Assembly (NCBI GenBank): GCA_903917235.1
Contig: CAIWZS010000413.1
Span: 342-64,341, forward strand
Reading direction: 5' to 3'
DNA from: an uncultured Planctomycetaceae bacterium
Lineage (GTDB): Bacteria; Planctomycetota; Planctomycetia; Pirellulales; UBA1268
DNA length: 64,000 nucleotides
Shown here: piece after piece, positions 1-64,000 of the stretch
How positions within the stretch are numbered: the first letter of the stretch is position 1
How the letters are laid out: each line of letters opens with the position of its first letter
Position numbers and translations under genes: made by a program
Notes under the pieces: generated by a model
Told to the model about the DNA's origin: nothing
Database searches by the model: none
What the model saw: only the letters and a program-made list of their open reading frames with translations

Positions 1-980
1 AAGATCGAGCCCTTGAACTGCTTGATCCGCGTGCGGAGCGCCGTGGAAAAGCCCCCCTGCCCCATCGTCTTCCAGACTTCCGAGACCAGCGGCACGAACT
101 GCTCGGGCGACTCCTTGAGGCTGGCGAGCAGCGCCGTGAAGCCGCCCCGCGGCGTGAGGCAGACGTCTTCCGAGAAAAACGTGAACAGGCAGCGGATCAG
201 AAACCAGGCCACCTGCTCCGGCTCGTAGTCCTTGGCCTCGAGCCGGCGGGCCAGCACGGCGATCCGGGCGGCGATCTCGCGGGTGACCTTGGCCGAATGA
301 CGAGCCGGGTCGAGGGCCAAGGGATCGAGCCAGAGCGTCGTGAGCCGCTCGCGGAGCCCCGCGTCGCGGAGATCGTCGAGGCTGAAGCGGTGGCTGCGGG
401 CGTCGGGAAAGGCCGTGTAGACCTTGCCCAGCCGGGAAAAGTCGGCGTAGAGCTCGAAGGAGTGGCCGATGTCGATCACGAGCAGGAACGGCGGATTGTC
501 GTCGGGCAGCGCCCGCACGTAGCCCTCGGCCTGGCCGCGGGCCGCGATCATGGAATCGTCCCAGCCGGCCGTGCCGCGGACGCTCGTGCCGCTCTTGCGG
601 CGGGCTTTGGGGGCCGCCGGATCGGCCACCGAGAGCGGGTCCTTCGCCTCCCGCGCGACCGACTGCTTCGTCTCGCAGACGAACGCGCCCTTGCGGTAGA
701 GGTCGATGTAGCCGGTAGACGTCTTGCCGTCGGGGTTCAAGAAGGTGACGGCCTTGTCGAACACGTAGCGGTTCGCCGCCTCGTCGGCCACGCTCGGGTC
801 GGGCCGTGGCACGCCGAGCACGTCGCACAGCTCGGCCAGAAAGAGCTGGTAGTTGGCCCGCTCGGCTCCGGCACTGGCACCCCAGCGGGTGATGAACGCC
901 TCGAGGTCGGCCGGCGCGGCGGCGGCCCCCTGCCCTGCCCGCTGCCCGGTTTCGCTGCGCTCACGCATGCGCGGCAGCAT
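1..980 (-). CDS. MmeI-family (type IIL/IIG) restriction endonuclease / N6-adenine DNA methyltransferase, N-terminal part only (3' end lies left of the window)
   Basis: Absent from the ORF track because it runs off the window. My reverse-strand translation from ATG 980 (alternative ATG 968) stays open to nt 1. It reads MLPRMRERSETGQ..LEAFITRWGASAGAERANYQLFLAELCDVLGV..GYIDLYRKGAFVCETKQ..PPFLLVIDIGHSFELYADF..WFLIRCLFTFFSEDVCL. This is colinear with the N-terminus of the 962-aa protein at 55988-58876 (D..ExK nuclease motif plus helical linker). Confidence 0.6.
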   Translation of the reverse strand, partial: MLPRMRERSETGQRAGQGAAAAPADLEAFITRWGASAGAERANYQLFLAELCDVLGVPRPDPSVADEAANRYVFDKAVTFLNPDGKTSTGYIDLYRKGAFVCETKQSVAREAKDPLSVADPAAPKARRKSGTSVRGTAGWDDSMIAARGQAEGYVRALPDDNPPFLLVIDIGHSFELYADFSRLGKVYTAFPDARSHRFSLDDLRDAGLRERLTTLWLDPLALDPARHSAKVTREIAARIAVLARRLEAKDYEPEQVAWFLIRCLFTFFSEDVCLTPRGGFTALLASLKESPEQFVPLVSEVWKTMGQGGFSTALRTRIKQFKGSI

Positions 981-1146
981 ACCCGCTCCCGCGGGGGGCG
1001 TGCTGAGCCGTAAGCGGTTGAATCGCTCGCGCGGAGATAGACTGCCGGGTCTGCCGGCTTCGGCGATGGCTGCAGAAGGAATCTCATGCCGTCGGCCTGA
1101 TGGGATGACGTGTTGCAGCGTCGGCCGTGCCTCGGAGGGGAACGCC

Positions 1147-3159: not shown

Positions 3160-3208
3160 AGCGCATCCGGCGGACGCGGCGTTGTGCATCGAATTCCGTG
3201 GATGCGTA

Positions 3209-4783: not shown

Positions 4784-4863
4784 GGGCGGGCTCCTCGGGT
4801 GCCGGGCCGATTCCCCTGACGAATCGTCCCGACACTCTGTGAAGCGCGGCCGCGGAGAAAACG

Positions 4864-7146: not shown

Positions 7147-7239
7147 GCTACGGGCCTCCCGGCCGGTGGTCGTGCGCCGCCCTCGCGGCCCAACGACGCC
7201 ATGATGATACGCCCCGCGTCCGGAGGTAGCATCCGTCCC

Positions 7240-7839
7240 ATGAACACCGACCCTCACCCAGTGCGGTGGACCGATCCGGAGGCTGTCGCCGCCTGCGTGG
7301 AGGCCCACCGTCCGCGCCTGCTCGCATTCGTCGCGCACCGCATGGGGCCGGCGCTCCGGCAGCGGCTCGATCCGGACGACATCGTCCAGGAGGTGAGCCT
7401 CGCCGCCGTGCGACCGGCGCACGCCCCCGCGCCGGCCGAGGCGCCGCAGCGCGAGCCGTTCGCCTGGCTGTGCCATGTCGCCGAGCAGCGCATCATCGAC
7501 GCGCACCGCCGGTATTTCGCCACGACGAAACGACATGCAGGCCGGGAGGTCTCGATCGACGCTCGCCGCGAGACAGGCGACGGTGAAGGTGGTTTCGAGT
7601 CGCTCCTCGCCGTGAGCATGACCACGCCCAGCCAGGCGATGTCGCGTGACGCGAAAGAGTTTCGCCTGGCCCTGGCGATCGAATCACTCCCGGCCGACCA
7701 GCGGAAGGTCATGCGGATGCGGTACGTGGACGGCCTCGCGACGAAGGAGATCGCCGAGCGCCTCGGCAAGTCGGACGTCGCGGTCCGCGTGATGCTCTCC
7801 CGCACCGTGCAGAAGCTGCAGCAACTGCTCGGGGACTGA
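7240..7839 (+). CDS. ECF-family RNA polymerase sigma factor
   Basis: ATG 7240 within track ORF 6862-7839. Region 2 reads DPDDIVQEVSLAA and region 4 reads RKVMRMRYVDGLATKEIAERLGKSDVAVRVMLSRTVQKL. Confidence 0.8.
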   Translation: MNTDPHPVRWTDPEAVAACVEAHRPRLLAFVAHRMGPALRQRLDPDDIVQEVSLAAVRPAHAPAPAEAPQREPFAWLCHVAEQRIIDAHRRYFATTKRHAGREVSIDARRETGDGEGGFESLLAVSMTTPSQAMSRDAKEFRLALAIESLPADQRKVMRMRYVDGLATKEIAERLGKSDVAVRVMLSRTVQKLQQLLGD

Positions 7840-7857
7840 TCCCGGCCCGAGCCCCGA

Positions 7858-10185
7858 TCAACGCGTGTCGGCCTGCTGTCGGCTGTAGCGCAGGTTGTTC
7901 TCGAGCAGGCTCGACCCCGGCAGGATCACCAGGCCGGCTTCGTAGGCCTTGATCGCCGCCGGCCAGTCCTTTTCGAAGTGTGCTCGAGCCCGCCTGTCGA
8001 GGCAGTACTCGAGATTGCCCTCGATGAGCCGCGACCCGGGCGCCGCCCTGTGACCGCGCACGTATCGTTCGATCGCCACGTCCCAGTCCTCCTTCGCCTG
8101 CTGTGCCCACGGCACGTAGATGCGTTCCCAGAGATCCTCGATCACGCTCGCGTCACCGAGCGACGCCAGGGCCGGCACGTGCCGGCCCACGTACGCCTCG
8201 GCCTCTTCCCAGTGCGCCTGCTCCTGGAGCGCGGAAGCCCGCCGATGCACGTGCCGCACGATCACGTCGGGTACGTCGCTCGTCCGCGGCAGTTGTGCAG
8301 CCAGTTCCACGGCGCGGGCGATGGCCGTCGATTCGGCATCGGCAGCCTTGGCGGCGGCAAGTTCCTCCTGGACGGCATACTCGAGATTGTCGGCGAGCCT
8401 GCCGTCGTCGGGGTTCTGCATGATGCCCGCGAGCAGGATGTCGCGCGCGGCGGAAAACCGCCCCGCGTCGATCTCTTCCTTCGCCCAGCGTGACCGGACC
8501 GAGCCGCACCACTCGGCGAGCCGCGCGCGATCCCGACCTTCGAGCCGCTCGAGGCCGGGAGCCACGATCTCGAGCGCCGCCTGCCAGTCCTCGTGCTCGA
8601 CGTGCTCCGCGGCCTTCCGGGTGAACAGCCCGACCTTCGCCTCTTCGAGGTCATGGTCATGCGGCAGGAGCATCAGGCCGGAGGCGAGCACGGCGAGCGC
8701 CTCGTCGATCCGGCCCGCGTCGCACTCGGCGATCGCGCACGCGATGAACGAGGCTCTGGCGTTGGTGCGGATGCCGTATTCGTCCGGGGCGAGCCGCATC
8801 GCCGCCTTCGAGACGGCCACCGCATCGGCCGCGGCACCGGCGTCGAGCAGTGCCTTGCTCCAGTTGGTGAGCGCGGCAAGCGCGTTCTTGACGAGGGACG
8901 CGCTCGCCGGGTCGAGTTGGAGCCCGCGGAAATACATCGCGAGCGCTCCCGGGTGATCCCCCTGCTCCGCCCGCGCGACGCCGTGGTTGTAGTAGACGAG
9001 CGCGACGAGCCCCGCGTCGTTCACCTCACGCCGTTCCTCGCGGTGGCTCTCGGGCACGTAGACGAAGCCGGTGCGCTCGCGAAACTTCTCCGCCGCCTCC
9101 GCGCTCCGGGCCGGGTTGAAGCCCTCGGGAATCGTCGTCTCCACGTCGACGTGCCGCGGGCCGTCGTAGACGATCGCGAAGGCGTGTTCCGGCACCTCGA
9201 TCCCGCGGACGTCGAGGCCGAGCCGACGGCCCACGATGGTGTAGACCACGGCGCTCGACACGCAGTTGAATCGCCCCGTCTCGAGCACGGTGGAGACGTC
9301 GGTCTGACGAAGCGCGTACCCCCCCTTGAAAGGGCCGGCGTGCAGGAGGCGCAGGATCGCCTCCCCCCTGACCTGCAGGTCGCCCGTGCCGGACACGGCC
9401 CGATCCGCGTCGGCGACCAGCCGATCGACGATGGCGAGGTGGCTCGCGCGGGCGGCCGCATCGGCCTCGCCCGAGGCGATGAGGGCTGCCTCCGCGAAGG
9501 AGATGCCGTCGAACGTGCCATCCGCGCCGTCGGCCAGCATCGCCGCCTCGTCGGCCGGGCAGGCGAGATCGAGCGACATCTTCTGGAGCGTTGCGACGAC
9601 CTCGAGCGCGTCGGCAGGCGATTCCTTGAACGCGCGCCGCGGCTCGACGATCCCCTCGTATCCGAGGAGTGCCAACTCCGTCACCCTCACGCCCGTGCCG
9701 TCCGCGGGCGCGCGCAGGCGAACGAGCACCCGCTTCGCTGCGACGGGACCGAGGTCGTACGTGTACGGACCGGCACCGCGGAAGAGCGCGATCGACTTCA
9801 CCACGCTGAAACGGTCGCCGTCCCCGTCCGGCGAGACGAGGATCTCGAGGTCGGTGGGCTGCGTCGAGGGCCGGCCTGAGTCGAGACCGATCACCACCCG
9901 CCGGAGGCCCATGATCGCCCCACCCCATGAGATCGCCAGGTCGATCTCGTCGCCGCCACGCGCCGCGAGTTCGACCGCCGTCGACGGATCACCGTCGGTG
10001 ACCGCGGCAGCCGACTCGAGGCGCCGCGAACGGTCGGCCGGTTCGATCAGCGCGTCGTCTCGCGTGAGCAGGTCGCCGATGGGCGGCTCCGCGGATCGCC
10101 CGGCGGATGCCGCGAGCAGGGTGGCGACGAGGGTGGCCGCATGGGCCACCCTCGTGTTTCCGACCATTCTTCTCGTTGGTCTCAT
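7858..10185 (-). CDS. secreted discoidin(F5/8-C)-like + transglutaminase-like + TPR repeat protein
   Basis: Track ORF of 775 aa with a signal-like N-terminus. Cys-His-Asp core reads GRFNCVSSAVVYT..EHAFAIVYDG..VDVETT. Multiple TPR-like helices follow in the C-terminal half. Confidence 0.65.
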   Translation of the reverse strand: MRPTRRMVGNTRVAHAATLVATLLAASAGRSAEPPIGDLLTRDDALIEPADRSRRLESAAAVTDGDPSTAVELAARGGDEIDLAISWGGAIMGLRRVVIGLDSGRPSTQPTDLEILVSPDGDGDRFSVVKSIALFRGAGPYTYDLGPVAAKRVLVRLRAPADGTGVRVTELALLGYEGIVEPRRAFKESPADALEVVATLQKMSLDLACPADEAAMLADGADGTFDGISFAEAALIASGEADAAARASHLAIVDRLVADADRAVSGTGDLQVRGEAILRLLHAGPFKGGYALRQTDVSTVLETGRFNCVSSAVVYTIVGRRLGLDVRGIEVPEHAFAIVYDGPRHVDVETTIPEGFNPARSAEAAEKFRERTGFVYVPESHREERREVNDAGLVALVYYNHGVARAEQGDHPGALAMYFRGLQLDPASASLVKNALAALTNWSKALLDAGAAADAVAVSKAAMRLAPDEYGIRTNARASFIACAIAECDAGRIDEALAVLASGLMLLPHDHDLEEAKVGLFTRKAAEHVEHEDWQAALEIVAPGLERLEGRDRARLAEWCGSVRSRWAKEEIDAGRFSAARDILLAGIMQNPDDGRLADNLEYAVQEELAAAKAADAESTAIARAVELAAQLPRTSDVPDVIVRHVHRRASALQEQAHWEEAEAYVGRHVPALASLGDASVIEDLWERIYVPWAQQAKEDWDVAIERYVRGHRAAPGSRLIEGNLEYCLDRRARAHFEKDWPAAIKAYEAGLVILPGSSLLENNLRYSRQQADTR

Positions 10186-52242: not shown

Positions 52243-52319
52243 GCCCGATGCTCCGGAGGCTGGGGCCGAATTCAACGGACGGCATGGTTCGGCATCGACA
52301 CACCTGGGCTCATCACCAT

Positions 52320-52350
52320 GCGGGCGGCACCGGTCAACGGTGCCGCCCGC
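52320..52350 (+). terminator. intrinsic-terminator-like hairpin between convergent HU and rfbB genes
   Basis: Perfect 12-13-bp inverted repeat gcgggcggcacc(g) / (c)ggtgccgcccgc, followed on the plus strand by tctcgttgtg. Confidence 0.5.
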
Positions 52351-52460
52351 TCTCGTTGTGAGCCCGGGTTGTGGGCAGCGGTTGTGGGCAGCGGCACGGC
52401 GAGCGGGCGGCCACATGGACGGCGGCCATGGCCGCTGTCGACGGCGTTTCTCGCTGTCTG

Positions 52461-53555
52461 TCAGCCGCGGGACGTCGTCGCGGCGGAGTAGTGCTTCGCG
52501 ATCCACTCCCGGTAGCCGCCGCTCGTCACGTCGGCCACCCACTCCGCGTGGTCGAGGTACCAGCGCACGGTGCGGCGGATCCCCGATTCGAACGTCTCCC
52601 GCGGCCGCCAGCCGAGGGACCGCTCGACCTTGCGCGCGTCGATGGCGTAGCGCCGATCGTGCCCCGGCCGATCGGTGACGAAGGTGATCTGGTCCGCATA
52701 CGACCTTCCATCCCGGCGCGGTGCCAGCTCGTCCAGGATGGAGCAGAGCGTCCGCACGACCTCGAGGTTCGGCTTTTCATTCCAGCCGCCGACGTTGTAC
52801 GTCTCTCCCGGCATGCCCCGGTCGAGTACCGTCCGAATCGCGGCCGTGTGGTCCTCCACATAAAGCCAATCTCGCACCTGCTGCCCATCGCCGTAGATCG
52901 GCAGCGGCCTGCCGGCGAGCGCATTGTGGATGCAGAGCGGGATCAGCTTCTCCGGAAACTGGAAGGGACCGTAGTTGTTGGAACAGTTCGTGGTGACGAC
53001 GGGGATGCCGAACGTGTGATGGAAGCTCCGCACGAGATGGTCCGAGGCCGCCTTGCTCGCAGCATACGGGCTGTTCGGCTGGTAGGGTGTCGTCTCCGTG
53101 AAGGGCGGATCCTCCGGGGCGAGCGTGCCGTACACCTCGTCGGTCGACACGTGCACGAAGCGAAACCGCGCGCGACTCGGTTCGTCCTGGGCGGCATCCG
53201 GCGGCAGGTCGGACCAGTGCGCCCGTACCGCCTCGAGGAGCCGGAACGTTCCCACGACGTTGGTCTGGATGAAGTCCTCCGGGGCGTGAATCGACCGATC
53301 GACGTGGCTCTCGGCCGCGAAGTGCACGACGGCCCTGATGCGCTCACGACGCAGGAGCGACAGGACGAGGTCGCGGTCGCCGATGTCGCCGCGTACGAAT
53401 TGGTGGCGGCGGTCGTCGGCCAGCGCGTCGAGGTTCCGGAGATTGCCGGCGTAGGTGAGCTTGTCGAGGTTGACCACGGGCTCATTCCCGTGCCGCAGCC
53501 AGTCCAGGACGAAATTGCTCCCGATGAAGCCCGCCCCGCCCGTCACCAGAATCAT
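52461..53555 (-). CDS. rfbB: dTDP-glucose 4,6-dehydratase
   Basis: ATG 53555 ([16 protein letters not shown]) within track ORF 52461-53609. Motifs: [41 protein letters not shown]. Confidence 0.92.
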
Positions 53556-53932
53556 GTCGTTCTCCTCGCACCCCTGCCATGACCGCTTCGCTCCGGGCGC
53601 ACCCTCCACGGATGTCCCGGGCCACTGCCCCGCGCCCGTCCGCGCTCATGCCTCGTGTGGCGTGCACGAGGTTGTAGGGATGCCCACACCGCTTGCCAAG
53701 CATCATGGGCGGGATTCACCTTCGCTGGATGATGCGAGCGGTCGCTCCGCATCGTGTGCATCGGCATGCCCGCGGCGCCGCGATCAAGCGGGTTCACCGC
53801 CACGTGATCCGCCTCGCGGACACGTTGCCGCCACCCCCTTGGCAGAGGTATGCTCCATGTGGGGAACGGCGTCGAACGCGGTCATGATCGCGAGCGACCG
53901 CCGCCAGATCACTCCCACGAGAGAGGTCGCCC

Positions 53933-54856
53933 GTGCGCATCGCGACACGTCGTGCAGGTTTCACCCTCGTCGAACTGCTGGTGGTGATCGCGATCATCGC
54001 GGTGCTGATCGGCCTGCTCCTGCCCGCGGTGCAGTCGGCTCGTGAGTCTGCCCGCCGCCTGTCGTGCACGACGAGGCTCAAGCAGTGGGGCCTGGCCATG
54101 CACAGCCACCATCAGGCCTTTCGCAAGCTGCCGTACACGGCCAAGGTCGGCATCCGCCAGACATTCCTGCCGATGCTGCTGCCGTACATCGAGCAGTCCG
54201 GACTCGTGGAGGGATTCGACCGGAACGTCAGCCAGTTCTGGCTTCCCCCCTTCATCGTGCAGAACTCGACGACCGGTCTCTTCTGCAACCCCATCCCGCT
54301 GCTGTACTGCCCGAGTGACCGTGTCGGCGCCCTGTGGCAGGACGACACCTACTGGCGCGCCCGCAGCAACTACCTCGTGTGCTGGGGCTCCGTCACCGTC
54401 GGCGCGACGACCCCGGCCGCCAGCCTCGGCGTCTTCGCCAATGCCGGCGCGAATCCGAGACAGATGCGGTTCGACGACATCACCGATGGACTGTCAAAGA
54501 CGCTCCTGATGGCCGAGATCATCGTCGCCAGGATGGATCGCAATGCGTCATGGGACGGACGGGGTGATGCCTACAACGACGACATGGCGAATCCCGGGTC
54601 GATGTTCATGACGATCAACACGCCCAACTCGACCGTCCCCGACGCCGTCTGGTGCGTGTCGAACGGAGACCGTGCCATGCCGTGCGTACCCGCCTCGGGA
54701 GCCAACGGCCAACAGGCGGCACGCAGCCGGCACCCGGGTGGGGTCGACGCGCTGCTGGCGGACGGATCCGTGAGGTTCTTCACCGACGGTGTCCCCATCG
54801 CCGTCTGGCGTTCCTTCGGTTCACCGGCTGACGGCGAGATCACAGCAATCGAATGA
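53933..54856 (+). CDS. DUF1559-family protein with a prepilin-type N-terminal cleavage/methylation domain
   Basis: Track ORF of 307 aa starting at GTG 53933 with GAGAGG upstream. N-terminus: [37 protein letters not shown]-terminus: [18 protein letters not shown]. Confidence 0.88.
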
Positions 54857-55269
54857 ACCGCTCGACCCGCCGGATCGCCGCACGACTGCTCGCCGTGGCA
54901 GCGGCTGTCGCCCTCGTGGGCTGCGGCCGACGCGGCCCACCCACGTATCCGGTCGCGGGCACGGTGCGTCTCGACGGCGTGCCGGTGGAGCGCGGGCTGA
55001 TTCGGCTCGTGCCCACCGGCGCCGCGGCGCCGGTGGGCGCCGAAATCTCGGGCGGTGCCTATACCCTCCTCGCGCCGCCGGGTGAGGCACGTGTCGAGAT
55101 CACGGCCGCGAAAGTCGTCGGCCGACGCCAGGCCTACGATGCCCCCGACAGTCCACTCGTGGACATCACCGCGGAGGCCGTGCCCGAGAAGTACAACACC
55201 TCGAGCACGCTGACGCTCGACGTCCAGGCCGGCGACAACCGGAAGGACTTCGACCTGGTCACTCGCTGA
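54853..55269 (+). CDS. lipoprotein with a carboxypeptidase-regulatory-like fold (usual DUF1559 partner)
   Basis: Track ORF of 138 aa with lipobox LVGC. The ATG overlaps the upstream stop (ATGA). Contains [19 protein letters not shown]. Confidence 0.7.
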
Positions 55270-55411
55270 ACAGGTCGACAGGGGTTCGATGCGGGCGGGA
55301 GAGGCACCCGAGGTTCGTCACCGGGGGCGAGTCGCCCACCATACCGTCGGCGCTTCGCGTGATCGCGGAAGCAACACGCGCGACGCACCTGCCGGCAGGC
55401 GTTTCGCAATG

Positions 55412-55455
55412 AGTGGACAGGGCCGGAATCGAACCGGCGACACACGGATTTTCAG
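55412..55455. repeat. att half-site: 44-bp exact copy of the 3' portion of tRNA-Phe (distal end of the island)
   Basis: Identical to 63953-63996 (agtggacagggccggaatcgaaccggcgacacacggattttcag). The flanks diverge immediately on both sides, and no anticodon-stem partner is present here. Confidence 0.9.
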
Positions 55456-55585
55456 AGCCTTCCGACAGACAGTGTTTTCGGCTTGTTTTGCCGAGCGAAA
55501 CCAACTTTTACCGGCTTTGCGAGAGATTGCAAAGCATCGCGACGAAGTGCCGAAAATCACGTTATTCGCGCGGGTCGTGAAAACG

Positions 55586-55603
55586 GAATCCGGTAGTTAC
55601 CGG
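55586..55603. repeat. 18-bp repeat gaatccggtagttaccgg (copy 1), containing the palindrome ccggta-gt-taccgg
   Basis: Exact second copy at 63856-63873. This copy lies 131 nt inside the left att copy. Confidence 0.85.
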
Positions 55604-55723
55604 CGCGGCACGAGCACGAGCTCAAGGGCGGCGGCGACCTCCGAACCGGACCAATTCCGCTTTCGCGACCCCATGCCCACGGCCTATCTTTGATCGAGGC
55701 TCATCAACCCAACGGAGGAACAC

Positions 55724-55918
55724 ATGACACTCGATGAAGCGACCGACCTCGCCCGGCAACAGGCCCAGGAGGCCGGGATCGAAATGGTGATCGTCCGCGA
55801 CGAGCTCTCGGAGGATGCCGGAGGGTATGAGTGCTGCGCCGCTATGTACGTGAGCACCCTCTACTCCGAGCACCATCGCGACTTCTGGGAAATTGTGGGG
55901 CGCGTGCCCGCCCCGTGA
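55724..55918 (+). CDS. small acidic hypothetical protein (64 aa) upstream of the RM gene
   Basis: Track ORF. The ATG is preceded by ACGGAGGAACAC (strong Shine-Dalgarno). Codon usage is less GC-biased than the host. No recognisable motif. Confidence 0.45.
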   Translation: MTLDEATDLARQQAQEAGIEMVIVRDELSEDAGGYECCAAMYVSTLYSEHHRDFWEIVGRVPAP

Positions 55919-55987
55919 TCGCCGCGATCCGCGGGCGGCGGCGGCCCGGATAGCCCCTCCCGAACGGGGGAGCGTAAACTCGCGGCC

Positions 55988-58876
55988 ATGTCGCACCCCG
56001 TCACCCCCCAGCTCTTGATCGCGAAGTGGAAGCGGGCCGACCTCGCGGAGCGGGCGGCCTGCCAGGAGCACTTCATCGACCTCTGCCGGATGCTCGGCCA
56101 CCCGACCCCCGCGGAGGCCGACCCGAACGGCGAGTGGTTCACATTCGAGCGGGGCGTCGAGAAAGCCGAAGGGGGCAACGGCTGGGCCGACGTGTGGAAA
56201 CGGAACTTTTTCGGCTGGGAATACAAGGGCAAACACAAGGATTTGCGGGCGGCGTATCGTCAGCTCCAGCTCTACCGCGAAAGCCTCGACAACCCGCCGC
56301 TCCTGGTCGTGTGCGACCTCGACCGGATCGAGATTCACACGAACTTCACCGGCTGCGCGAAGCGGGTTTTTGCCTTCGACCTCGAAACCCTGCCGCAGCC
56401 GGAGAACCTCGACGTTCTCCGCAAGCTCTTCACGAATCCGGAGGCGCTCAAGCCGGCCCAGACCACCGAACAAATCACGGTCGAGGCGGCGCGGACGTTC
56501 GCCGAGATTGTCGATGGATGGCGGGCCCGGGGCGTCGATGCCCACGTCGCGGCACACTTCGCGATGAAGCTCATGTTTTGCATGTTCGCGGAGGACATCG
56601 AACTCCTCCCCGAACGAATCTTCCGGACCACGATCGAGGGGGCGAAGAAAGACCCGACGCGGCTCGGCAAGCGGCTCCAGGGCCTCTTCGACGCGATGGC
56701 GGTCGGCGGCGACTTCGGGCCCGTCACGATCCCCTGGTTCAACGGCGGGCTGTTCAAGGAAAACGAAGCCGTGATCGACCTCACGGCGGAGGACATCGAC
56801 CAGCTCGCCCGCCTCAACTCGTTCGATTGGGCCGACGTGGAGCCGAGCATCTTCGGCACCCTATTCGAGCGGACCCTCGATCCGGCGAAGCGGTCGCAGA
56901 TTGGAGCCCACTACACGAGCCGGGAGGACATCCTCACGCTCCTGGAGCCCGTGCTCATGGCCCCGCTGCGCCGCGAGTGGCAGGCGGTCCAGGAGCGGTG
57001 CGATGTGCTCACCCCGCAGCTCACCGACAAGCGGAAGGCGGCGAAGGCCCGAAAGGAACTCGACAAGATTCTCCGCGACGTCGTGGAGCGGCTCGCGGCC
57101 ATCCGGATTCTCGATCCGGCCTGCGGCTCGGGGAACTTCCTCTATGTCGCGATCAACCTCTTGCTCGATCTCGAAAAGGAAGTGATCGCGTATGCCGCCC
57201 GCCACGGCACGAGCCTCATACCGCAAGTGAAGCCGTCGCAGCTCTACGGGCTCGAAATCAACCCGTATGCCGCCGAACTGGCCCAGGTCGTGATCTGGAT
57301 TGGATACCTCCAGTGGATTCACCACAACGGCTTCGCCGCGCCGCGGGATCCGATCCTAGAGCCCATCGACACGATCCGGAACATGGACGCGATCATCGAC
57401 CTATCCGATCCCGACAACCCCAAGGAACCGGAGTGGCCGGAGGCCGACGTGATCGTGGGGAATCCGCCGTTTTTGGGAGGGAACAAGATTCGTGCCGCCC
57501 TTGGCGAAGCGTATGTCGATCCGCTTTTTGCGGTCTACGGCCGGCACGTTCCGTCTACTGCGGACCTCTGTTGTTACTGGTTCCACAAATCGCGCATCGC
57601 GATCACCGCTGACAGAGCCTCGCGAGTGGGGTTACTCGCGACGCAAGGAATAAGAGGCGGAGCAAACAGGACCGTGCTCGACGCCATCAAAACCGATGGC
57701 GACATCTTTTTTGCGGTGAGCGATCAAACCTGGGTGCTTGATGGTGCGGCCGTTCATGTATCGCTCGTCGGCTTTGATAAAGGCGACGAAAGCGCACGGC
57801 GGCTCGATGGCCGAAGCGTTCTTTCAATCAACTCCAACCTCACCGCAGGGGCCGACACAACTCTCGCACGGCCTCTTTCTGCCAACCGCGACTTTTGCTT
57901 CTACGGTAGTCAGCAAAAAGCAAGCTTCGACATCACCCCTGCGGTTGCGATCGAAATGATGCTGTCGCCGAACCCCAGCGGTCGGCCGAATAGTGATGTA
58001 ATCAAACCCTCGATGAATGGTGCGCAGCTAACAAGGCGCACTCATGAGTCATTTGTCATTGATTTCGGGCAAGAGGAATCGCTCTCTGCCGTTGCGATGT
58101 ACGAGCAGCCCTTCGCGTACGTCAAGCAACACATTTTTCCATCGCGTGAGCATCATGCCGAAAGTCGCCAGCGCAACTTTTGGTGGCTTCACGCTCGACC
58201 TTCGCCACGGTATCGCGAATGGCTCGCCGCCGGGCGGACCTCAGTTGTCACCCCTTGCACGGCTAAGCATCGGCTTTTCGTGATGGTGGCACCGCCCCTT
58301 TTGGTTGACCATGCGACCGCAGTATTTCCTACCGACGATTACTGGCATTTCGGGCTGCTCCATTCACGAGTTTTTGAGACGTGGGCTCGATCGCAGGGAA
58401 CACAAGTGCGAGAACGGGAGAGTGGTTTCCGTTTCACGCCCAGCTCATGCTTCGAAACCTTCCCGTTTCCCGAGCCGACCGCGGCCCAGCGCGACGCGAT
58501 CTCGGCGGCAGCGAAGGAACTCGACACGCTCCGCTCGAACTGGTTGAACCCGCCGGAGTGGACGCGGGAGGAAGTGCTCACGTTTCCCGGCTCCGTCGAT
58601 GGCCCCTGGGCCCGGTACGTGACGGAGCCGAACGCGAAGGGTATCGGCACCGTGCGGTATCCGCGGGTCGTGCCAGCCGACGATGCCGCGGCGAAGAAAC
58701 TCGCGAAGCGGACCCTCACGAACCTCTACAACGAACGGCCGACGTGGCTCGATCTCGCACACAAGCGACTCGATGAAGCCGTGTTCGCCGCGTATGGGTG
58801 GCCGGCGGACCTCTCGGATGATGATCTCCTCGCGCGGCTGCTCGCGCTCAACCTGGAGCGGGCCGCGGCGGAGTGA
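55988..58876 (+). CDS. MmeI-family (type IIL/IIG) single-polypeptide restriction endonuclease / N6-adenine methyltransferase
   Basis: Track ORF of 962 aa. N-terminal D..ExK motif reads GWADVWKRNFFGWEYKGKHKDL..PPLLVVCDLDRIEIH. Methylase motif I is RILDPACGSGNFLY and motif IV is IVGNPPFLGG. A C-terminal target-recognition region follows. Confidence 0.8.
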   Translation: MSHPVTPQLLIAKWKRADLAERAACQEHFIDLCRMLGHPTPAEADPNGEWFTFERGVEKAEGGNGWADVWKRNFFGWEYKGKHKDLRAAYRQLQLYRESLDNPPLLVVCDLDRIEIHTNFTGCAKRVFAFDLETLPQPENLDVLRKLFTNPEALKPAQTTEQITVEAARTFAEIVDGWRARGVDAHVAAHFAMKLMFCMFAEDIELLPERIFRTTIEGAKKDPTRLGKRLQGLFDAMAVGGDFGPVTIPWFNGGLFKENEAVIDLTAEDIDQLARLNSFDWADVEPSIFGTLFERTLDPAKRSQIGAHYTSREDILTLLEPVLMAPLRREWQAVQERCDVLTPQLTDKRKAAKARKELDKILRDVVERLAAIRILDPACGSGNFLYVAINLLLDLEKEVIAYAARHGTSLIPQVKPSQLYGLEINPYAAELAQVVIWIGYLQWIHHNGFAAPRDPILEPIDTIRNMDAIIDLSDPDNPKEPEWPEADVIVGNPPFLGGNKIRAALGEAYVDPLFAVYGRHVPSTADLCCYWFHKSRIAITADRASRVGLLATQGIRGGANRTVLDAIKTDGDIFFAVSDQTWVLDGAAVHVSLVGFDKGDESARRLDGRSVLSINSNLTAGADTTLARPLSANRDFCFYGSQQKASFDITPAVAIEMMLSPNPSGRPNSDVIKPSMNGAQLTRRTHESFVIDFGQEESLSAVAMYEQPFAYVKQHIFPSREHHAESRQRNFWWLHARPSPRYREWLAAGRTSVVTPCTAKHRLFVMVAPPLLVDHATAVFPTDDYWHFGLLHSRVFETWARSQGTQVRERESGFRFTPSSCFETFPFPEPTAAQRDAISAAAKELDTLRSNWLNPPEWTREEVLTFPGSVDGPWARYVTEPNAKGIGTVRYPRVVPADDAAAKKLAKRTLTNLYNERPTWLDLAHKRLDEAVFAAYGWPADLSDDDLLARLLALNLERAAAE

Positions 58877-59245
58877 TCGCCGCACGAGACACGATGCGGA
58901 GGCCCGGCATCCTGCCGGTCCGGAGGTTTTCTTTCGCAGCGGCTCGCCCTCGATGCTGTTCTCTGCGGGGGCCTCATCAGGGAGAAGGGGGCTCGCCTCC
59001 GCATCCGGCATCGGCTCGTCCCCCTCTCCCTCGCCGGCCCCCGCGGTGCGGCTGCGCCGCGCCCCCGGCTTCCCTCTCCCCTGGATGCGGAATCGAGGGC
59101 ATCCCCGCCGCTGCGAAGGCCAGCCCCGCCGCATACGCGGCGGAGCCGGCCCGGCGGCATCGTGCCGCTAGCGGAGCCGGCGGCAGCCGCCGGCCCAGGG
59201 CATCGTGCCCGTTTCAAGGCGGCGGCATCGTGCCGCCGCGGAGAG

Positions 59246-59752
59246 TCAGCTCGCCGACCGGCCCCGCACGTAATCGAGCACCGTCGCACCCGGCTTGAAC
59301 GTCGCCGGCGGCTCGCCGGTCGGCCTGCCCCGCTTCGCAGCGAACTCGGCCAGCTCATCACGCTCCTCTCCCGGCGACGGCGGCATCGCGTCGAGGCGGG
59401 CCGCCGATGCCGGGTCGAGGCAGAGCGACTTGCCCAGCGCGAGCATCGTCGCCCGCAGCCGGCAGGCGGCGACGTGCGCCGCGCTCGGGGTCGTGCCGTG
59501 GGGGCCGCGCGAGGTTGAACCTTCGGCGGCGATCACGTTCGCCAGCTCACGAGCCTCCGCAGCGCACGAGCACCACTGCCCGAACGTGTCCGCGTGCTCG
59601 GGGCGGAGGCGGCCGGCGGCCCGGAGCCGGGGCTCGTGCTCACGCCACACTGCCGCGGCCTCTACGGGCAGCCAGCTCGGGGGCGGCAGAGGATCGGCCG
59701 GCGTCGCGATCGGGTTTCCTGCGCGACGTGGGAGGGGTCCTCGAAGGCCCAT
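59246..59752 (-). CDS. phage terminase small subunit, P27 family (Terminase_4-like)
   Basis: ATG 59752 within track ORF 59246-60274. Sequence: MGLRGPLPRRAGNP..PSWLPVEAAAVWREHEPRLRAAGRLRPEHADTFGQWCSCAAE..LALGKSLCLDPASAARL. Confidence 0.6.
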   Translation of the reverse strand: MGLRGPLPRRAGNPIATPADPLPPPSWLPVEAAAVWREHEPRLRAAGRLRPEHADTFGQWCSCAAEARELANVIAAEGSTSRGPHGTTPSAAHVAACRLRATMLALGKSLCLDPASAARLDAMPPSPGEERDELAEFAAKRGRPTGEPPATFKPGATVLDYVRGRSAS

Positions 59753-59832
59753 GCGTGTGCGCTCCTGTTTGTGAGGGAAGTCAGGACGGGAAACTCGGGG
59801 TTTCGCGAGCGAGAGAAACGTGATGGTTTTCC

Positions 59833-60171
59833 TCAGACGTGCTCGGCAGGATCGCACCCGCCCCCGGGGGCAGGGGTGGTGCCGTAGTACGCATCGACGG
59901 ATTCCTCCACCTGTTGCGCCGCGATCCATAGCCTCCAGGCGGCGAGTCGCAGCCGCTCGCACGCGCCCGCCTGTACGCGAGCGGCATCGAGCCCCCGGGC
60001 CTCTGTCACGATGTCCTGGGCAATCTCCGCGACGTGCTCTACCTCGTCTGGGAATGACTCGTGAAAGAAACTCACGAACCGCTCCGCGGCCGTGCCGCCC
60101 CTGCCACCCCCGTCCCACCTCACGCGGACATGGGGGGGTGGCACCGGAAAACCATCTTTTTCTCGGCTCAT
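59833..60171 (-). CDS. hypothetical protein (112 aa), 4-nt overlap with the primase gene stop
   Basis: ATG 60171 (MSREKDGFPV..) within track ORF 59833-60246. The call rests only on the coupling to the upstream gene and plausible composition. Confidence 0.4.
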   Translation of the reverse strand: MSREKDGFPVPPPHVRVRWDGGGRGGTAAERFVSFFHESFPDEVEHVAEIAQDIVTEARGLDAARVQAGACERLRLAAWRLWIAAQQVEESVDAYYGTTPAPGGGCDPAEHV

Positions 60172-61913
60172 ATCGCAGTTTCCTCCCCTCGTGCCACCCC
60201 TGCCACCCCTTTTTCGCCTCCCGGGGACACATCGTCCCCACCCCATACGTGACCACTGGCAGCCGTGGCACCACCGGCGGCGAACGTCCGCAACAGCTCC
60301 ATCTCGTGCGCGCTCAGACTCCGCAGCGTCGCCCGCGTGCCGTGCCGCTGAAACCTCTCCGGCTTCAACGTCCTACCGATGATCTCAGGCAATGCCCGGG
60401 CAACCTTCGTTGGCGCGTCCCGCTCGATGCCGTATGCCGACGCGATGTCTTGCCACAAACGATCCCAGGAAAACCACAGTTTGCCAGCAACCCAGCCGCC
60501 CGACCGCAGCGACACCAACTCTGCAAGTATTTCATCGTCGCTTGGATTCTCTTTTTTTGCCTGACATGGCGCGCAGCCCTCGCCTAAGCGATCGAGTTTT
60601 GCCACCATCAAACCGGCAAGCCGCCGCGTGCTGTTCTCTGCCGGGTCTGTCACCTCGACGCGGCGACCGGCGGCGATCGCCTCTTGTTCAAGCAAGACAC
60701 GAAGCCCCGTCACCGCCTCGCGAGCGGGATGATTTCTCGTGGCAGCCTGCGGTGCCGTGCCCTCCCATATCCTCGCGAAGTCTCCCGGATGCCGGTCGAA
60801 CGGCACCCCAGGAAACGCGCCGAGCAATGCCGTTTTCATCTTCCTCGCGTCGCCCCACACGTCGGCGGGAACACGAACGGAGCCCGACGGGTTGAAAGGC
60901 CGCAGTTCATCACACCGCAGCTCGAACATCGTCGGATCGCCCTGGAGGATCGTCAGCTCCAGGCCCGCCGGTCGATGCACGGTCCGCGATCCCTCGACGA
61001 TCGCCTCGACGCCCGGGAACAGGGCTTCCGCTGCCGTGTCCTCACGTCGGTATTTCAGAGCGCTACGGAAGACGCCCTTCACCTCATCATCGGCAAGCGG
61101 GGGGCGGCAGCGTGTCGTGTTCACCGCTCTCAGCACATCGAGCAAGGCTTGCTCCATCTCGTCATCTCCTGGATGGATGCTCCGCGATAGCAGGCAGGCC
61201 GCATGAAACACGGCATCATTCCGACCGCCCTCACCAACCGGGCCGCGGAGGATCGCCGTCGATCGCCGCCCGGGGGCGAGGTTGCCAGCGCTCTCCGCTG
61301 TCCCGCGTCGAACGAACTCCTGGATCAACTCCATGATGTTGTCTGGCACCGCGGCGATCTCGACTTCATCGAGGCCAAAACCGGGCTCCCACTGGTACGC
61401 TCGGCCGGAGTGGTGCATGGAAGGCGGCATCACGCTCTGGGTCTGTCTGCCGCCGCCGCCGATGCGGACCTCGATGCCGTGCGGCTTCACAACCTGGAGC
61501 GCGGGCAGCTCAGGCGACCAGAGAAACAGGCGATGAAGGCCCCGACCGGAACTCCATGTCGGAGTCTCGAAACGATCGAGGCCGAGCCGCCGCAGCTCTG
61601 CCGCGGCTTCGTCGGAATCCGCCTCGATGTCGATCACCGCCGGCCCGGTGCCGCGGCCCGCGTCCCCGAGCACGACGCCGACGTTGAACCGTGTCGGCCC
61701 GCCCCACCACTCGAACACCTCATCCTCGTCAGTGGTAATTTCCCAGGCCGAGCCGGTCGGATGCTTGCCTGGGCTACCGCAGTCTGCGCCCTTCCAGCAC
61801 GTACATTCACCCGGCCGAACCAGCCCGTTCAACCTCACCACGCGAAGCCCTCGATGCACGTAGCCTGCGATCACCTTCGCGATGCCGTCGGCATCGACCG
61901 TCGAAACAGACAT
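60168..61913 (-). CDS. bifunctional DNA primase/polymerase (Prim-Pol N-terminal domain + PriCT-1-like domain)
   Basis: ATG 61913 preceded by AGGAG, within track ORF 60168-62336. Motifs: GKHPTGSAWE, NVGVVLG..AVIDIEADSDE, SGRGLHRLFLW, SVMPPSMHHSGRAYQW, and GGRNDAVFHAACLLSR. No Walker A motif is seen. Confidence 0.75.
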   Translation of the reverse strand: MSVSTVDADGIAKVIAGYVHRGLRVVRLNGLVRPGECTCWKGADCGSPGKHPTGSAWEITTDEDEVFEWWGGPTRFNVGVVLGDAGRGTGPAVIDIEADSDEAAAELRRLGLDRFETPTWSSGRGLHRLFLWSPELPALQVVKPHGIEVRIGGGGRQTQSVMPPSMHHSGRAYQWEPGFGLDEVEIAAVPDNIMELIQEFVRRGTAESAGNLAPGRRSTAILRGPVGEGGRNDAVFHAACLLSRSIHPGDDEMEQALLDVLRAVNTTRCRPPLADDEVKGVFRSALKYRREDTAAEALFPGVEAIVEGSRTVHRPAGLELTILQGDPTMFELRCDELRPFNPSGSVRVPADVWGDARKMKTALLGAFPGVPFDRHPGDFARIWEGTAPQAATRNHPAREAVTGLRVLLEQEAIAAGRRVEVTDPAENSTRRLAGLMVAKLDRLGEGCAPCQAKKENPSDDEILAELVSLRSGGWVAGKLWFSWDRLWQDIASAYGIERDAPTKVARALPEIIGRTLKPERFQRHGTRATLRSLSAHEMELLRTFAAGGATAASGHVWGGDDVSPGGEKGVAGVARGEETAI

Positions 61914-61989
61914 GACGAATCTCCTCTGGCCGTGTCGTGTTGACACGCGGCGAGGAGGCGGCCATCCTTGACCCCGCAGCGCGACTTTG

Positions 61990-62034
61990 CCCGGGTCTGG
62001 GTCAACGGCAATCGACCCCAGGCCCGGGTTTTTT
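61990..62034 (+). terminator. textbook intrinsic terminator on the plus strand, antisense to the primase leader
   Basis: Stem cccgggtctgggtc / gaccccaggcccggg (one mismatch plus one bulge), 10-nt loop, then TTTTTT at 62029-62034. The flanking genes are all on the minus strand. Confidence 0.5.
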
Positions 62035-62040
62035 GTTGGT

Positions 62041-62343
62041 CTACATGCCCATTCGCTCAAGCTCTTGCATCGCCCGCTTCGACCTCGTGCTCGGGGCTGG
62101 AGTCTGGGCCCAGGCCGCACCGGCCGCAGTGGTGCGGGCCTCGATGAAGCGGCGGAGTGCCGCGCGGGTCGTGTAGACCGACGAACCGACGCGGACGGTT
62201 TCAAGGCGGACACCCTTCGCGCCGCGAGTGCTCCAGCGCCAGAGCGATGTGAGCGAAACTTTCGCGCCGCCTCGCCGCTTCGGCAGCAGCGCCGCCGCCT
62301 GCGGCATGGTGAGCAGCTCTTCGGACAACGGATCAATCGACAT
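62041..62343 (-). CDS. DUF1580-type helix-turn-helix protein (excisionase/regulator-like)
   Basis: Track ORF of 100 aa with GAAGGGAG upstream. Sequence: LLTMPQAAALLPKRRGGAKVSLTSLWRWSTRGAKGVRLETVRVGSSVYTTRAALRRFIEA. Confidence 0.65.
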   Translation of the reverse strand: MSIDPLSEELLTMPQAAALLPKRRGGAKVSLTSLWRWSTRGAKGVRLETVRVGSSVYTTRAALRRFIEARTTAAGAAWAQTPAPSTRSKRAMQELERMGM

Positions 62344-62637
62344 GACGGGGCTCCCTTCGGATGGAGCCGCGCGCAGCGATCACCGACGAAACGAACAGAT
62401 CACGGGCGCGGCAGGGCGGAGAGACAACCGGGCTATCGGTTGCAAGTCACAAGGCCCTGCCGGGCAGGAATGCGGTGCGAAAAACTGCGTGTCTGCGTCC
62501 CGGGTTTTCGAACCCTTCGATGAAACGCTCGGCTCTAACGGGTTGGGACTAAGCCGCCACGGGGCCGAGATTCACTGGCCGACTTGCTTGCCAGATACCG
62601 CCGAATGTAGCGACCGATGCAAACCCGTCCAGTTTTT

Positions 62638-63834
62638 TTAGCCGAGCCGCGCCATATGGGCGGCGGCGGCTTCACGATCCGCCTCCGCGTACAACTCCGC
62701 CATGCCGGGCGACCGATGGCCGAGCACGACGCGAGCCGCCTCGATGCCGATCTCGCGTCGAAGGTCCGTCGCGGCAGCGTGTCGCAGTTGATGCGGGTGC
62801 CAGTGCTCGATCTCGGCCCGCTTGCAGGCTCGGCCGACCGCATGGCCCAGGCGGCCGGGCGTGTACCGCTCGCCCGGAAGACGGCGATTCTGGGCCCTCC
62901 CGCCGCGTTTTCGGGTATCGGCCGCGCGCTTGTTCCTCGCGGCCCTGGCTCTGTCGGCATCGGTACGTCCGGCGACATGGGCCGCCTCGCGAACCGCCGC
63001 CGCCGCCTCCCGCGGCTGAAACAGAAACGCCTCCGGGTCCGCCCGCAGCCAATCGGCGAGGACGGCCTGGGCACGCGGGCCGATGTAGACCACTCGCTCG
63101 TGGCCGCGGTGGGCCGTCTTGTGGGTCTCCGGGCGGTACTCCCACGGGCTCACGGTGCGGTCGATGTCGCCCGTGCGCATGATGCAGACCTCGCCCGGCC
63201 GGGCCCCCGTGAACCGCATCAACCGGAGGATGGCTCGAACCTGGGGCGAGCCGATCTCGGCGAGCGTCGCCTCGAACACGGCATCCGACACCGGCTTCAC
63301 CGCCGGGGTTTCCTTGGCGACCGACCGCCCGGCCCGAAGTCCTTTCACCGCCTTCAGGGCTTGCCAGCACTCGGCGGGCAGCAACTCATTCTCGACGCCC
63401 CATGCCCAGGCTCTGACGATGCGCCCGACCCGCTGGTTGATGTACCGACGGGCGAGCCCGGCCTCGATCCAGACTTCGCGGACGGCCTTCAAGGCCAGCG
63501 GGCCAAAGTCCCGCGCGAGTGTATGGCCGTACCTCTCAATCACGGGACGCATCGCGAGGCGGATTTGGGCCTGCTCCTTGCTCGGGGGCGCGTAGTAGCC
63601 CTTGGCGAAGCGGCGATATGCGAGCACCAACTCGGCGACCGTGATCGCCTCGCATGCGGTCGCGGTCGGGGCTCCGCCGCTCGCCAGCCACTCGCCCACG
63701 AGCCGCTGGTATTCGGCCTGGGCAGTGCGGGAGCCCCAAGGGCCGCAGTAGTGATCCCGGCCGGAAATCGTCACCACAGCCTGCCGCGAGGGCCTGTGGA
63801 GCCGGAGAGAGGGAACTCGCGTCTTCGTCTTCAT
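62638..63834 (-). CDS. tyrosine-type site-specific integrase
   Basis: ATG 63834 within track ORF 62638-63984. Motifs: RLMRFTGARPGEV, HPHQLRHAAATDL, LGHRSPGMAELYA (R..HxxR..Y). Confidence 0.9.
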   Translation of the reverse strand: MKTKTRVPSLRLHRPSRQAVVTISGRDHYCGPWGSRTAQAEYQRLVGEWLASGGAPTATACEAITVAELVLAYRRFAKGYYAPPSKEQAQIRLAMRPVIERYGHTLARDFGPLALKAVREVWIEAGLARRYINQRVGRIVRAWAWGVENELLPAECWQALKAVKGLRAGRSVAKETPAVKPVSDAVFEATLAEIGSPQVRAILRLMRFTGARPGEVCIMRTGDIDRTVSPWEYRPETHKTAHRGHERVVYIGPRAQAVLADWLRADPEAFLFQPREAAAAVREAAHVAGRTDADRARAARNKRAADTRKRGGRAQNRRLPGERYTPGRLGHAVGRACKRAEIEHWHPHQLRHAAATDLRREIGIEAARVVLGHRSPGMAELYAEADREAAAAHMARLG

Positions 63835-63855
63835 CGAACGGTCCTCCTTTGGGTC

Positions 63856-63873
63856 GAATCCGGTAGTTACCGG
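63856..63873. repeat. 18-bp repeat gaatccggtagttaccgg (copy 2), here extended to the palindrome aatccggta-gt-taccggatt
   Basis: Lies between the integrase ATG (63834) and the att/tRNA end (63953). Confidence 0.85.
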
Positions 63874-63952
63874 ATTTCTGCCAATCGGAAGCCGCACGAT
63901 TCGACGCCGAATCGGTGAACGGAAAGCCGTTCTCAGCTTGCTCTTACGAACC

Positions 63953-63996
63953 AGTGGACAGGGCCGGAATCGAACCGGCGACACACGGATTTTCAG
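63953..63996. repeat. att half-site within the functional tRNA-Phe (integrase-proximal end of the island)
   Basis: Exact 44-bp match to 55412-55455. Confidence 0.9.
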
Positions 63997-64000
63997 TCCG
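63955..64000 (-). tRNA. tRNA-Phe (anticodon GAA), 3' two-thirds only; the 5' part lies beyond the window
   Basis: The reverse complement reads cgga-CTGAAAA-tccg (anticodon stem-loop, GAA), tgtgt, gccgg-TTCGATT-ccggc (T arm), cctgtcc-a (acceptor strand plus discriminator). It closely parallels E. coli tRNA-Phe. CCA is not encoded. Confidence 0.8.

Follow-up and report, generated by a model that had tools for sequence, protein, structure and literature searches.

A tRNA-Phe island of an uncultured planctomycete and its relatives: a candidate family of PICI-like phage satellites

The DNA considered here, termed the window, is a stretch of 64,000 nucleotides from an uncultured Planctomycetaceae bacterium (GenBank assembly GCA_903917235.1, contig CAIWZS010000413.1, positions 342 to 64,341 of the forward strand). 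At its right end lies an 8.5-kb site-specific integrative island, which represents a previously undescribed planctomycete family. Judged by its genes, the island is most likely a helper-dependent phage satellite that resembles the phage-inducible chromosomal islands (PICIs), and we place the probability of this reading at about 0.6. The island encodes an integrase, a small helix-turn-helix (HTH) protein, a primase, the small subunit of a phage terminase (TerS) and a restriction-modification enzyme. We know of no role for a small terminase subunit beyond the recognition of DNA for packaging by the large subunit (TerL). Because this TerS is under purifying selection, is fixed beside the integration and replication modules, and is accompanied by no other virion gene, a phage satellite is the best explanation of the island. 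An earlier note on the window had proposed that a set of int, xis, primase and terS genes without structural genes is the layout of PICIs and other satellites. That proposal now stands as a well-founded candidate, with the same gene order kept in many diverged relatives.

The island is a discrete insertion in a gene for tRNA-Phe(GAA). In the window it is bounded by an exact 44-nt direct repeat, AGTGGACAGGGCCGGAATCGAACCGGCGACACACGGATTTTCAG, at 55412-55455 and 63953-63996. The reverse complement of this repeat consists of the anticodon loop CTGAAAA (anticodon GAA), the variable loop, the T arm and the 3′ strand of the acceptor stem, and in the minus-strand reading it ends at the discriminator A plus two further nucleotides. 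ARAGORN reported no tRNA in the window because the tRNA gene is cut at base 64000, where the window ends. Rfam recognizes a 5′-truncated tRNA at 63955-64000 on the minus strand (model positions 27-71, 34.1 bits against a gathering score of 29), and 14 metagenome loci with the identical sequence fold as a full tRNA-Phe(GAA). The right copy of the repeat is followed by TCCG, which matches the start of the 5′ half of the anticodon stem, and the left copy by AGCC, which does not match the stem. Since the anticodon stem continues only from the right copy, the left copy is a displaced half-site. The attL site (55412..55455, minus strand) is thus a displaced 44-nt copy of the 3′ part of tRNA-Phe, followed by AGCC, and the attR site (63953..64000, minus strand) is the 3′ part of the functional tRNA-Phe(GAA) gene, which runs beyond the end of the window. 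No other copy of the repeat, whether full, half-length or degenerate, is present in the window, and so there is no sign of tandem islands.

The same site is found empty in related DNA. Metagenome contigs were scanned for the repeat followed by TCCG, which marks an intact tRNA gene, and the 14 loci mentioned above were returned. In one of these (L047), the left flank of the window (53618-55410) continues at 99.5% identity straight into an intact tRNA-Phe, which represents an empty attB site. Further empty sites are present in L041 (96% identity to the left flank of the window) and L039 (about 91-95%), and neither island DNA nor island-type proteins are present in any of the 14 loci. A previous scan of metagenome contigs with an exact 60-nt empty-site pattern had given no matches, because the final 13 nt of the flank contain two single-nucleotide polymorphisms, and the empty sites came to light with the broader tRNA pattern. 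The flank of L047 on the tRNA side shows homology to the Maf, pseudouridine synthase and protein kinase genes that flank a related island, L001, and this homology indicates that related islands occupy an orthologous locus. The island therefore shows both features of a site-specific integrative element in a tRNA gene, namely direct repeats derived from the tRNA 3′ end and an empty site in a relative. In 1-kb windows, its GC content ranges from 57 to 74% and is mostly 60-68%, compared with about 75% in the chromosomal genes further left. The claims of the earlier note regarding the island borders are all borne out by these results: the exact 44-bp repeat is the 3′ part of a minus-strand tRNA-Phe(GAA), and only its right copy leads into the anticodon stem. 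The empty site that the note proposed to look for is present in related DNA, at identities of about 91-96% and 99.5%.

Within these borders, start codons were picked by ribosome-binding-site context, and gene families were assigned by Pfam profile hidden Markov models with curated cut-offs, together with PHROG and PADLOC profiles. All of the island genes except the cargo are on the minus strand and point away from the tRNA. The gene that adjoins the tRNA-side repeat, int (62638-63834, minus strand), encodes a tyrosine integrase of 398 aa (PF00589, 4.5e-15; phrog_1, 6e-31). A DUF1580 HTH protein (62041-62343, minus strand; PF07618, 8.4e-11) occupies the position of an AlpA regulator or excisionase, and a 581-aa primase/replicase with Prim-Pol (2.6e-19) and PriCT_1 (6.3e-8) domains is encoded at 60168-61913 (minus strand). 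The primase stop codon is overlapped, as ATGA, by the start codon of an open reading frame of 112 codons, ORF112 (59833-60171, minus strand). ORF112 matches no family and is predicted to be a small helical protein, with an AlphaFold2 model that forms a helical hairpin (predicted local distance difference test, pLDDT, 70). It has only 7 close homologues in 3 representative clusters, and homologues occur in the related islands L025, L029 and L011. The next gene encodes a P27-family TerS of 168 aa (59246-59752, minus strand; PF05119 Terminase_4, 8.7e-10; phrog_83, ‘terminase small subunit’, 7e-18). Finally, the cargo gene (55988-58876, plus strand) encodes a 962-aa single-polypeptide restriction-modification enzyme of the MmeI type (type IIG/IIL). 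Its MmeI_N, MmeI_hel and MmeI_Mtase domains score above the cut-offs and MmeI_TRD just below (23.4 versus 27 bits), and PADLOC identifies it as REase_MTase_IIG (1e-263).

Pfam and PHROG searches of the island gave no match to large terminase, portal, capsid, tail or lysis genes, and the complete relatives described below (L021, L025 and L028) contain no structural or lysis genes. The reading of the gene content in the earlier note thus withstood the profile searches. The integrase, DUF1580, Prim-Pol, PriCT and P27 TerS assignments all exceed their curated cut-offs, the 112-aa ORF is coupled to the primase by a 4-nt overlap, the large terminase, portal, capsid and tail genes are absent, and the rest of the cargo is a restriction-modification enzyme.

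By gene content, the layout appears to match four of the five PICI core components of SatelliteFinder, combined with a lack of structural and lysis genes (PMC10085698). An integrase is present at the island end, together with a primase-replicase module and a small terminase, and there are no tail, holin or other structural or lysis genes. The position of the regulation module (alpA, merR or stl) is taken by the DUF1580 HTH protein, or by an HTH_17 protein in sister islands, although the profile link between them is weak. The capsid-morphogenesis component is missing, as no island protein has a capsid-related match. It has been established that a capsid-morphogenesis gene is frequent in proteobacterial PICIs and absent in those of the Staphylococcus aureus pathogenicity island (SaPI) type (PMC10085698). 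SaPI-type PICIs with their own TerS (SatelliteFinder ‘Type B’) likewise lack just this component. Further likenesses to PICIs are the location of the integrase at the end by the att site, followed by a small HTH gene in the place of the regulator or excisionase, a primase-replicase next to a candidate repeat origin and then the small terminase, as well as accessory or defence genes after terS and a comparably small size (PMC10085698). The island differs from PICIs in its host phylum, Planctomycetota, and in its regulator, which is DUF1580 (HTH_17 in sisters) and not a recognized AlpA, Stl or MerR profile, with no divergent repressor. It also differs in that its TerS belongs to a lineage of the P27/Terminase_4 family without a close phage relative, and in that no Ppi-, Cpm- or Rpp-type genes are recognizable on it. 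By function, PICIs are defined through induction, excision and replication that a helper phage sets off, and through packaging into particles derived from that helper.

The island has dozens of relatives, most of them on metagenome-assembly contigs and a few in planctomycete metagenome-assembled genomes (MAGs). The primase has about 40 relatives at 41-92% identity and TerS has about 100 clusters at an identity of at least 50%, in both cases nearly all on short environmental contigs, while the genome matches are planctomycete MAGs. In every context examined, the genes follow the order int, HTH, replicase, small ORF (92-118 aa) and Terminase_4, and then cargo. The same tRNA-derived repeat marks the borders of three complete relatives, L025 (9.8 kb), L028 (6.7 kb) and L021 (11.2 kb). 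The earlier note had named relatives with the same genes and no border repeat as evidence against its reading, and these three islands show the opposite pattern. At the start of the MAG contig that contains L028, positions 1-76 are an inverted copy of 160-235, which comprises the tRNA 3′ half and the island edge. Rather than a second att site, this copy most likely represents an artefact of assembly at the end of the contig. More distant Prim-Pol relatives (31% identity) are found on the planctomycete-type MAG contigs L013 (3485-13833) and L015, in which genes for a UvrD-type helicase, a beta-helix protein and a matrixin-like peptidase come after that of the primase, with all of them on one strand. 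This last element is neither clearly a phage nor an island.

Comparison of the relatives reveals extensive exchange of modules around a constant TerS. Islands in tRNA-Lys(CTT) (L029, L031 and L032) have a different integrase and an HTH_17 protein that replaces DUF1580, and they pair these with the same Prim-Pol, origin and TerS, except that L029 differs in its replicase and in the repeats that follow it. The primase of L011 is 92% identical to that of the window, yet this island has HTH_17 instead of DUF1580. The replicase is also exchanged, and is of the RepB_primase/D5_N type in L028 and an unrelated 502-aa protein in L029. L012, in which the primase is just 43% identical, still carries a Terminase_4 gene. 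Thus TerS and the small ORF that precedes it are kept through swaps of the integrase and tRNA target (Phe to Lys), the HTH gene and the replicase. The fixed place of TerS despite these swaps is the pattern of a core life-cycle gene rather than of cargo. The small ORF occurs as type A, which includes ORF112 of the window, or as type B, and the 113-aa ORF of L028 fits neither type; the two types do not track TerS subgroups. Module-swap loci are L011 2-364, L029 7444-7731 and L031 4943-5212.

The core genes are under purifying selection. Pairwise ratios of nonsynonymous to synonymous substitution rates (dN/dS) against relatives are 0.17-0.44 for terS, 0.11-0.19 for int, 0.17-0.36 for the primase and 0.07-0.37 for DUF1580. 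Since these genes are kept by selection, they do not represent a decaying prophage end.

The cargo slot after TerS differs between islands and mostly contains restriction-type genes. These encode Mrr-nuclease/helicase fusions in L019, L025 and L012, a ScoMcrA/EVE/HNH protein in L019, a C5-methylase fusion with a type III-like endonuclease in L021, a GIY-YIG/NUMOD protein in L001, and HNH and HSDR_N proteins on the P0003 contig. Cargo other than restriction genes consists of GYF_2 proteins in L025 and L028 and an unannotated 1010-aa protein in L031. Restriction-type cargo resembles the cargo slots of known satellites (PMC9122126).

A block of repeats of about 130 nt, at 60091..60229 on the minus strand, extends across the primase stop codon and the start of ORF112 and is a candidate replication origin. 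In the window it contains four exact copies of GGGGTGGCA, one of them inverted, and one copy with a single mismatch, arranged around a relatively AT-rich spacer. A 16-mer, GGTGGCAGGGGTGGCA, occurs twice in the window compared with an expectation of 0.02. The coding DNA on either side diverges, whereas the block itself is nearly invariant across all Prim-Pol islands, including those in tRNA-Lys. L028 and L029 do not have the block, and their different replicases are followed by inverted or direct repeats of their own. The block varies together with the replicase but independently of TerS, which makes an origin more likely than a packaging site, and the GGGGTGGCA repeat block is probably the replication origin. 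In SaPI origins, repeats flank an AT-rich region just after the replicase gene, and by analogy this arrangement would fit the reading of the block as an origin. A scan of IMG/VR with the origin 18-mer gave 13 matches, none of them with island genes.

Conserved sequences are also found at the two ends of the island. At the distal end, about 160 nt are kept in relatives even where the cargo is unrelated; this segment (55456..55621, minus strand) shares 79-87% identity with the ends of islands whose cargo is unrelated, and is a candidate attP arm. It contains the first copy of an 18-mer, CCGGTAACTACCGGATTC, at 55586-55603 (minus strand), and the second copy, at 63856-63873 (minus strand), lies just upstream of int, as a candidate arm-type or operator site. 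The 18-mer is present exactly twice in the window (0 expected), once inside each island end and in the same orientation. It is also present in relatives, and it includes the near-palindrome CCGGTAAC/TACCGG. The CCGGTAACTACCGGATTC sites probably serve as arm-type sites for the integrase or excisionase, or as an operator of int, and together with the conserved distal end they look like attP arms. A further feature, conserved in some islands only, is the GC-rich, strongly structured spacer between the convergent terS and MmeI genes (58890..59250, minus strand), which contains several hairpins and has a folding z-score of -6.2. This spacer of about 360 nt is 77-86% identical in L019 and L031, partial in L021, weak (67%) in L025 and undetected in L001 and L028. 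It is a candidate for a terminator, an insulator or a packaging site. No matches were obtained when IMG/VR was scanned with two conserved stretches downstream of terS.

The surroundings of the insertion site have features of their own. In two of the intact tRNA-Phe loci, L046 (1-447) and L036 (1-414), the DNA downstream of the tRNA matches neither the left flank of the window nor the island family, and the tRNA-proximal flank of L046 is shared with L047. The tRNA-Phe site may hold other inserts in these two loci, where there is little sequence. In the window, a lineage-specific segment of about 3.1 kb (52300-55411) separates the conserved chromosomal flank from the tRNA, and the GC content falls from 0.75 to about 0.66 within it. 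This segment encodes a GDP-mannose 4,6-dehydratase (52461-53609, minus strand), a DUF1559/N-methyl protein (53933-54856) and a lipoprotein-like ORF (54853-55269). In tRNA-Phe loci that are less closely related, only 150-600 nt separate the tRNA from the homologue of the window at 51.8-52.25 kb, and L039 lacks 53901-54658 and 54992-55182. The segment may be an older insertion at the same tRNA, and no repeat remnant was found.

Taken as a satellite, the island would go through a life cycle in several steps. Integration is the step recorded in the DNA itself: through the 44-bp core, the tyrosine integrase places the island in the 3′ end of the tRNA-Phe(GAA) gene, so that the tRNA is restored and a half-site is left behind in displaced form. 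In the presence of an active helper phage, the DUF1580 HTH protein would promote excision, turn on the downstream operon, or both. The Prim-Pol/PriCT replicase would then initiate replication at the adjacent GGGGTGGCA repeat origin (60091-60229). Subsequently, the island P27 TerS would recruit the large terminase of the helper, so that island DNA is packaged into helper capsids, and ORF112 may assist in this packaging. The island is 8.5 kb in size and has no remodelling gene, which suggests that it would be packaged as multimers, or in small capsids by means of an unrecognized factor. Finally, the MmeI-type enzyme, which is identified at the gene level and occupies a slot in which cargo is swapped between islands, may protect the host and the island against other phages.

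Other known satellites share some of these features. The virion-encapsidated integrative mobile elements (VEIMEs), and in particular the module-6 elements with small terminases, have a tyrosine integrase, AlpA or excisionase, a primase/helicase, sometimes a TerS, and defence genes (PMC9618062). VEIMEs are defined by recovery from virus particles and are marine, and their TerS is closest to that of co-occurring phages, while the present island is known from sequence, has relatives mainly in metagenome assemblies and planctomycete MAGs, and has a TerS without a close phage counterpart. The phage-inducible chromosomal minimalist islands, or PICMIs, of Vibrionaceae resemble the island in their very small size, their core of int, HTH regulator and primase, a gene with an ATGA overlap, and the absence of capsid-remodelling genes, which suggests packaging of concatemers (PMC10803314). 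PICMIs also protect their host from other phages (PMC10803314). They are defined by int, alpA and prim without terS and by integration next to fis, they have no terS, sid or ppi homologue, and their helpers are virulent phages (PMC10803314); the island, by contrast, has terS and is integrated in tRNA-Phe. P4-like satellites share a tRNA-linked integrase, a primase and a variable anti-phage slot (PMC9122126). In contrast to P4, which uses the cos site of its helper and encodes no TerS, the island has its own TerS, and it has no homologues of psu, delta, sid or epsilon, with Pfam and PHROG giving integrase and primase matches only for this comparison. Capsid-forming PICIs (cf-PICIs) are characterized by their own capsid, portal, protease, head-tail connectors and TerL, none of which is on the island.

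Several results weigh against a satellite, among them those of the search for a helper phage. Searches of the window, of phage genomes and of IMG/VR did not identify a helper. There is no prophage in the rest of the window, as the larger ORFs scanned by Pfam belong to ordinary chromosomal families or have no match. The families outside the island include Ser/Thr kinases, AccA, LeuA, photolyase, MoxR, BatA and the DUF1559/N-methyl protein, which is typical of Planctomycetes. Together with DUF1580 and the relatives in planctomycete MAGs, this protein agrees with the planctomycete-type genome that the earlier note had supposed. The island TerS gave no match by tblastn against 50,697 phage genomes, and a pattern scan based on the TerS alignment found no relatives in IMG/VR.

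The primase has relatives on 225 viral contigs in IMG/VR, and the best 80 of these 225 loci (L048-L127) were read. These 80 are 26-47% identical to the island primase, or 27-35% where the whole protein aligns. Many of the contigs are 40-70 kb in length with 58-67% GC and encode Prim-Pol/PriCT primases, and several come from samples that also yielded islands (3300031951, 3300032093, 3300042691 and 3300031787). These contigs are candidate planctomycete phages. Within 10 kb of the primase, none of the best 80 of 225 loci has an island-type TerS, ORF112, int or origin repeats. The sole near-exception for TerS is L120 (IMGVR_UViG_3300034073_003457, 225-9055), an HK97-like phage contig with 65% GC, and its generic P27 TerS is just 24% identical. 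L120 encodes Prim-Pol, a DNA ligase, Terminase_4, TerL, a portal, an S78 protease, an HK97-type capsid protein and a head-tail connector; it indicates the type of phage that a satellite with a P27 TerS could exploit, and nothing more. Neither the primase relatives nor the motif scans in IMG/VR provide a specific helper link.

The remaining points on the same side concern the island itself. On it, neither a repressor of the Stl type nor a recognizable gene for capsid size or interference was identified, and likewise no pac or cos site. The ORF112 model has no fold match in PDB or BFVD. For DUF1580, alignment with the HTH_17/AlpA profile is weak (hhalign probability 5%), the structure model from the single sequence has low confidence (pLDDT 52), and the sequence has no match in PDB. 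In addition, the terminal overlap of the L021 contig, which ends inside the repeat, was considered as a sign of a circular form and rejected, since a k-mer assembly break at a repeat produces the same result.

Some of these points are as would be expected of the main rival explanation, an integrative and replicative defence island that needs no helper and is of the tycheposon or mobilisable-island type. In such an island, TerS would function in phage interference only, for example by titrating or misdirecting the large terminase of an invading phage, and the island itself would move through vesicles, transformation or generalised transduction. In favour of this reading, restriction or defence genes make up the cargo in almost every case, the searches gave no helper, pac/cos site or capsid-remodelling gene, no close counterpart of the TerS lineage appeared in the 50,697 phage genomes or the IMG/VR pattern scan, and small terminases are listed among the phage-interference genes of marine satellites (PMC9618062). 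However, TerS stays beside the replication module while every other module swaps, and the defence genes are located in a separate, variable slot. Moreover, interference by TerS and self-packaging go together in known systems. A defence island that is independent of helpers is thus possible but rather unlikely.

The island could also have come from a temperate phage, as the left end of a prophage (int, xis, primase and terS) that has lost its structural genes. All of the core gene families are indeed found in temperate phages as well, and L120 combines Prim-Pol, ligase and Terminase_4 with TerL, portal, protease and capsid genes. Yet many diverged copies contain this compact set of genes, whose reading frames are intact and whose dN/dS is well below 1, both ends are conserved and precisely att-bounded at 6.7-11.2 kb, and the island is wholly missing from a 99.5%-identical strain. 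Unlike L120, the island has no large terminase, portal, capsid, tail or lysis genes, nor remnants or fragments of structural genes, and its terS is followed by unrelated cargo, while phage terS directly precedes terL. We therefore consider a decayed prophage highly improbable. Transfer by conjugative mobilisation, or by a gene-transfer-agent-like particle encoded elsewhere in the genome, would be compatible with the present results in that none of them fixes the route of transfer. It is nevertheless improbable, given that neither the island proteins (Pfam) nor the gene lists of relatives include a relaxase, coupling protein or conjugation domain, and that a terminase small subunit has no known role in conjugation. 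A PICI-like, helper-dependent satellite is accordingly favoured as the most likely reading of the island.

Within the literature that was searched, no report ties phage satellites or PICIs to Planctomycetota and none mentions DUF1580, in keeping with the view of the earlier note that such elements are uncharacterised in this phylum. In a large survey, satellites were found mainly in Proteobacteria and Firmicutes, with some in Actinobacteria (PMC10085698). The island would therefore add to a known kind of element a family that is new, in a phylum that is new for it. When all of the observations are read jointly, at roughly even odds, they would describe the first recognized family of phage satellites in Planctomycetota. 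This family would be abundant in metagenome assemblies, some of them from samples that also contain 40-70-kb phage contigs, and would parasitise unsampled planctomycete phages by means of a satellite-specific P27 TerS lineage and a new helical partner (ORF112, types A and B), while carrying exchangeable restriction or defence cassettes at tRNA-Phe and tRNA-Lys.

To our knowledge, the phages of Planctomycetota are barely known, and few have been isolated. The existence of a conserved satellite-like family implies that a group of helper phages exists to match it, and that this group is probably common. To find these helpers, the conserved TerS, the att sites and the candidate origin can be followed from sample to sample and compared with phage contigs. 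The family also offers an unannotated small protein linked to TerS (ORF112, types A and B) and DUF1580 as a candidate analogue of excisionase or AlpA. Finally, the swapping of restriction and defence cassettes on satellite-type elements, which is known from enterobacteria and staphylococci, is shown by these islands to extend to a distant environmental phylum.

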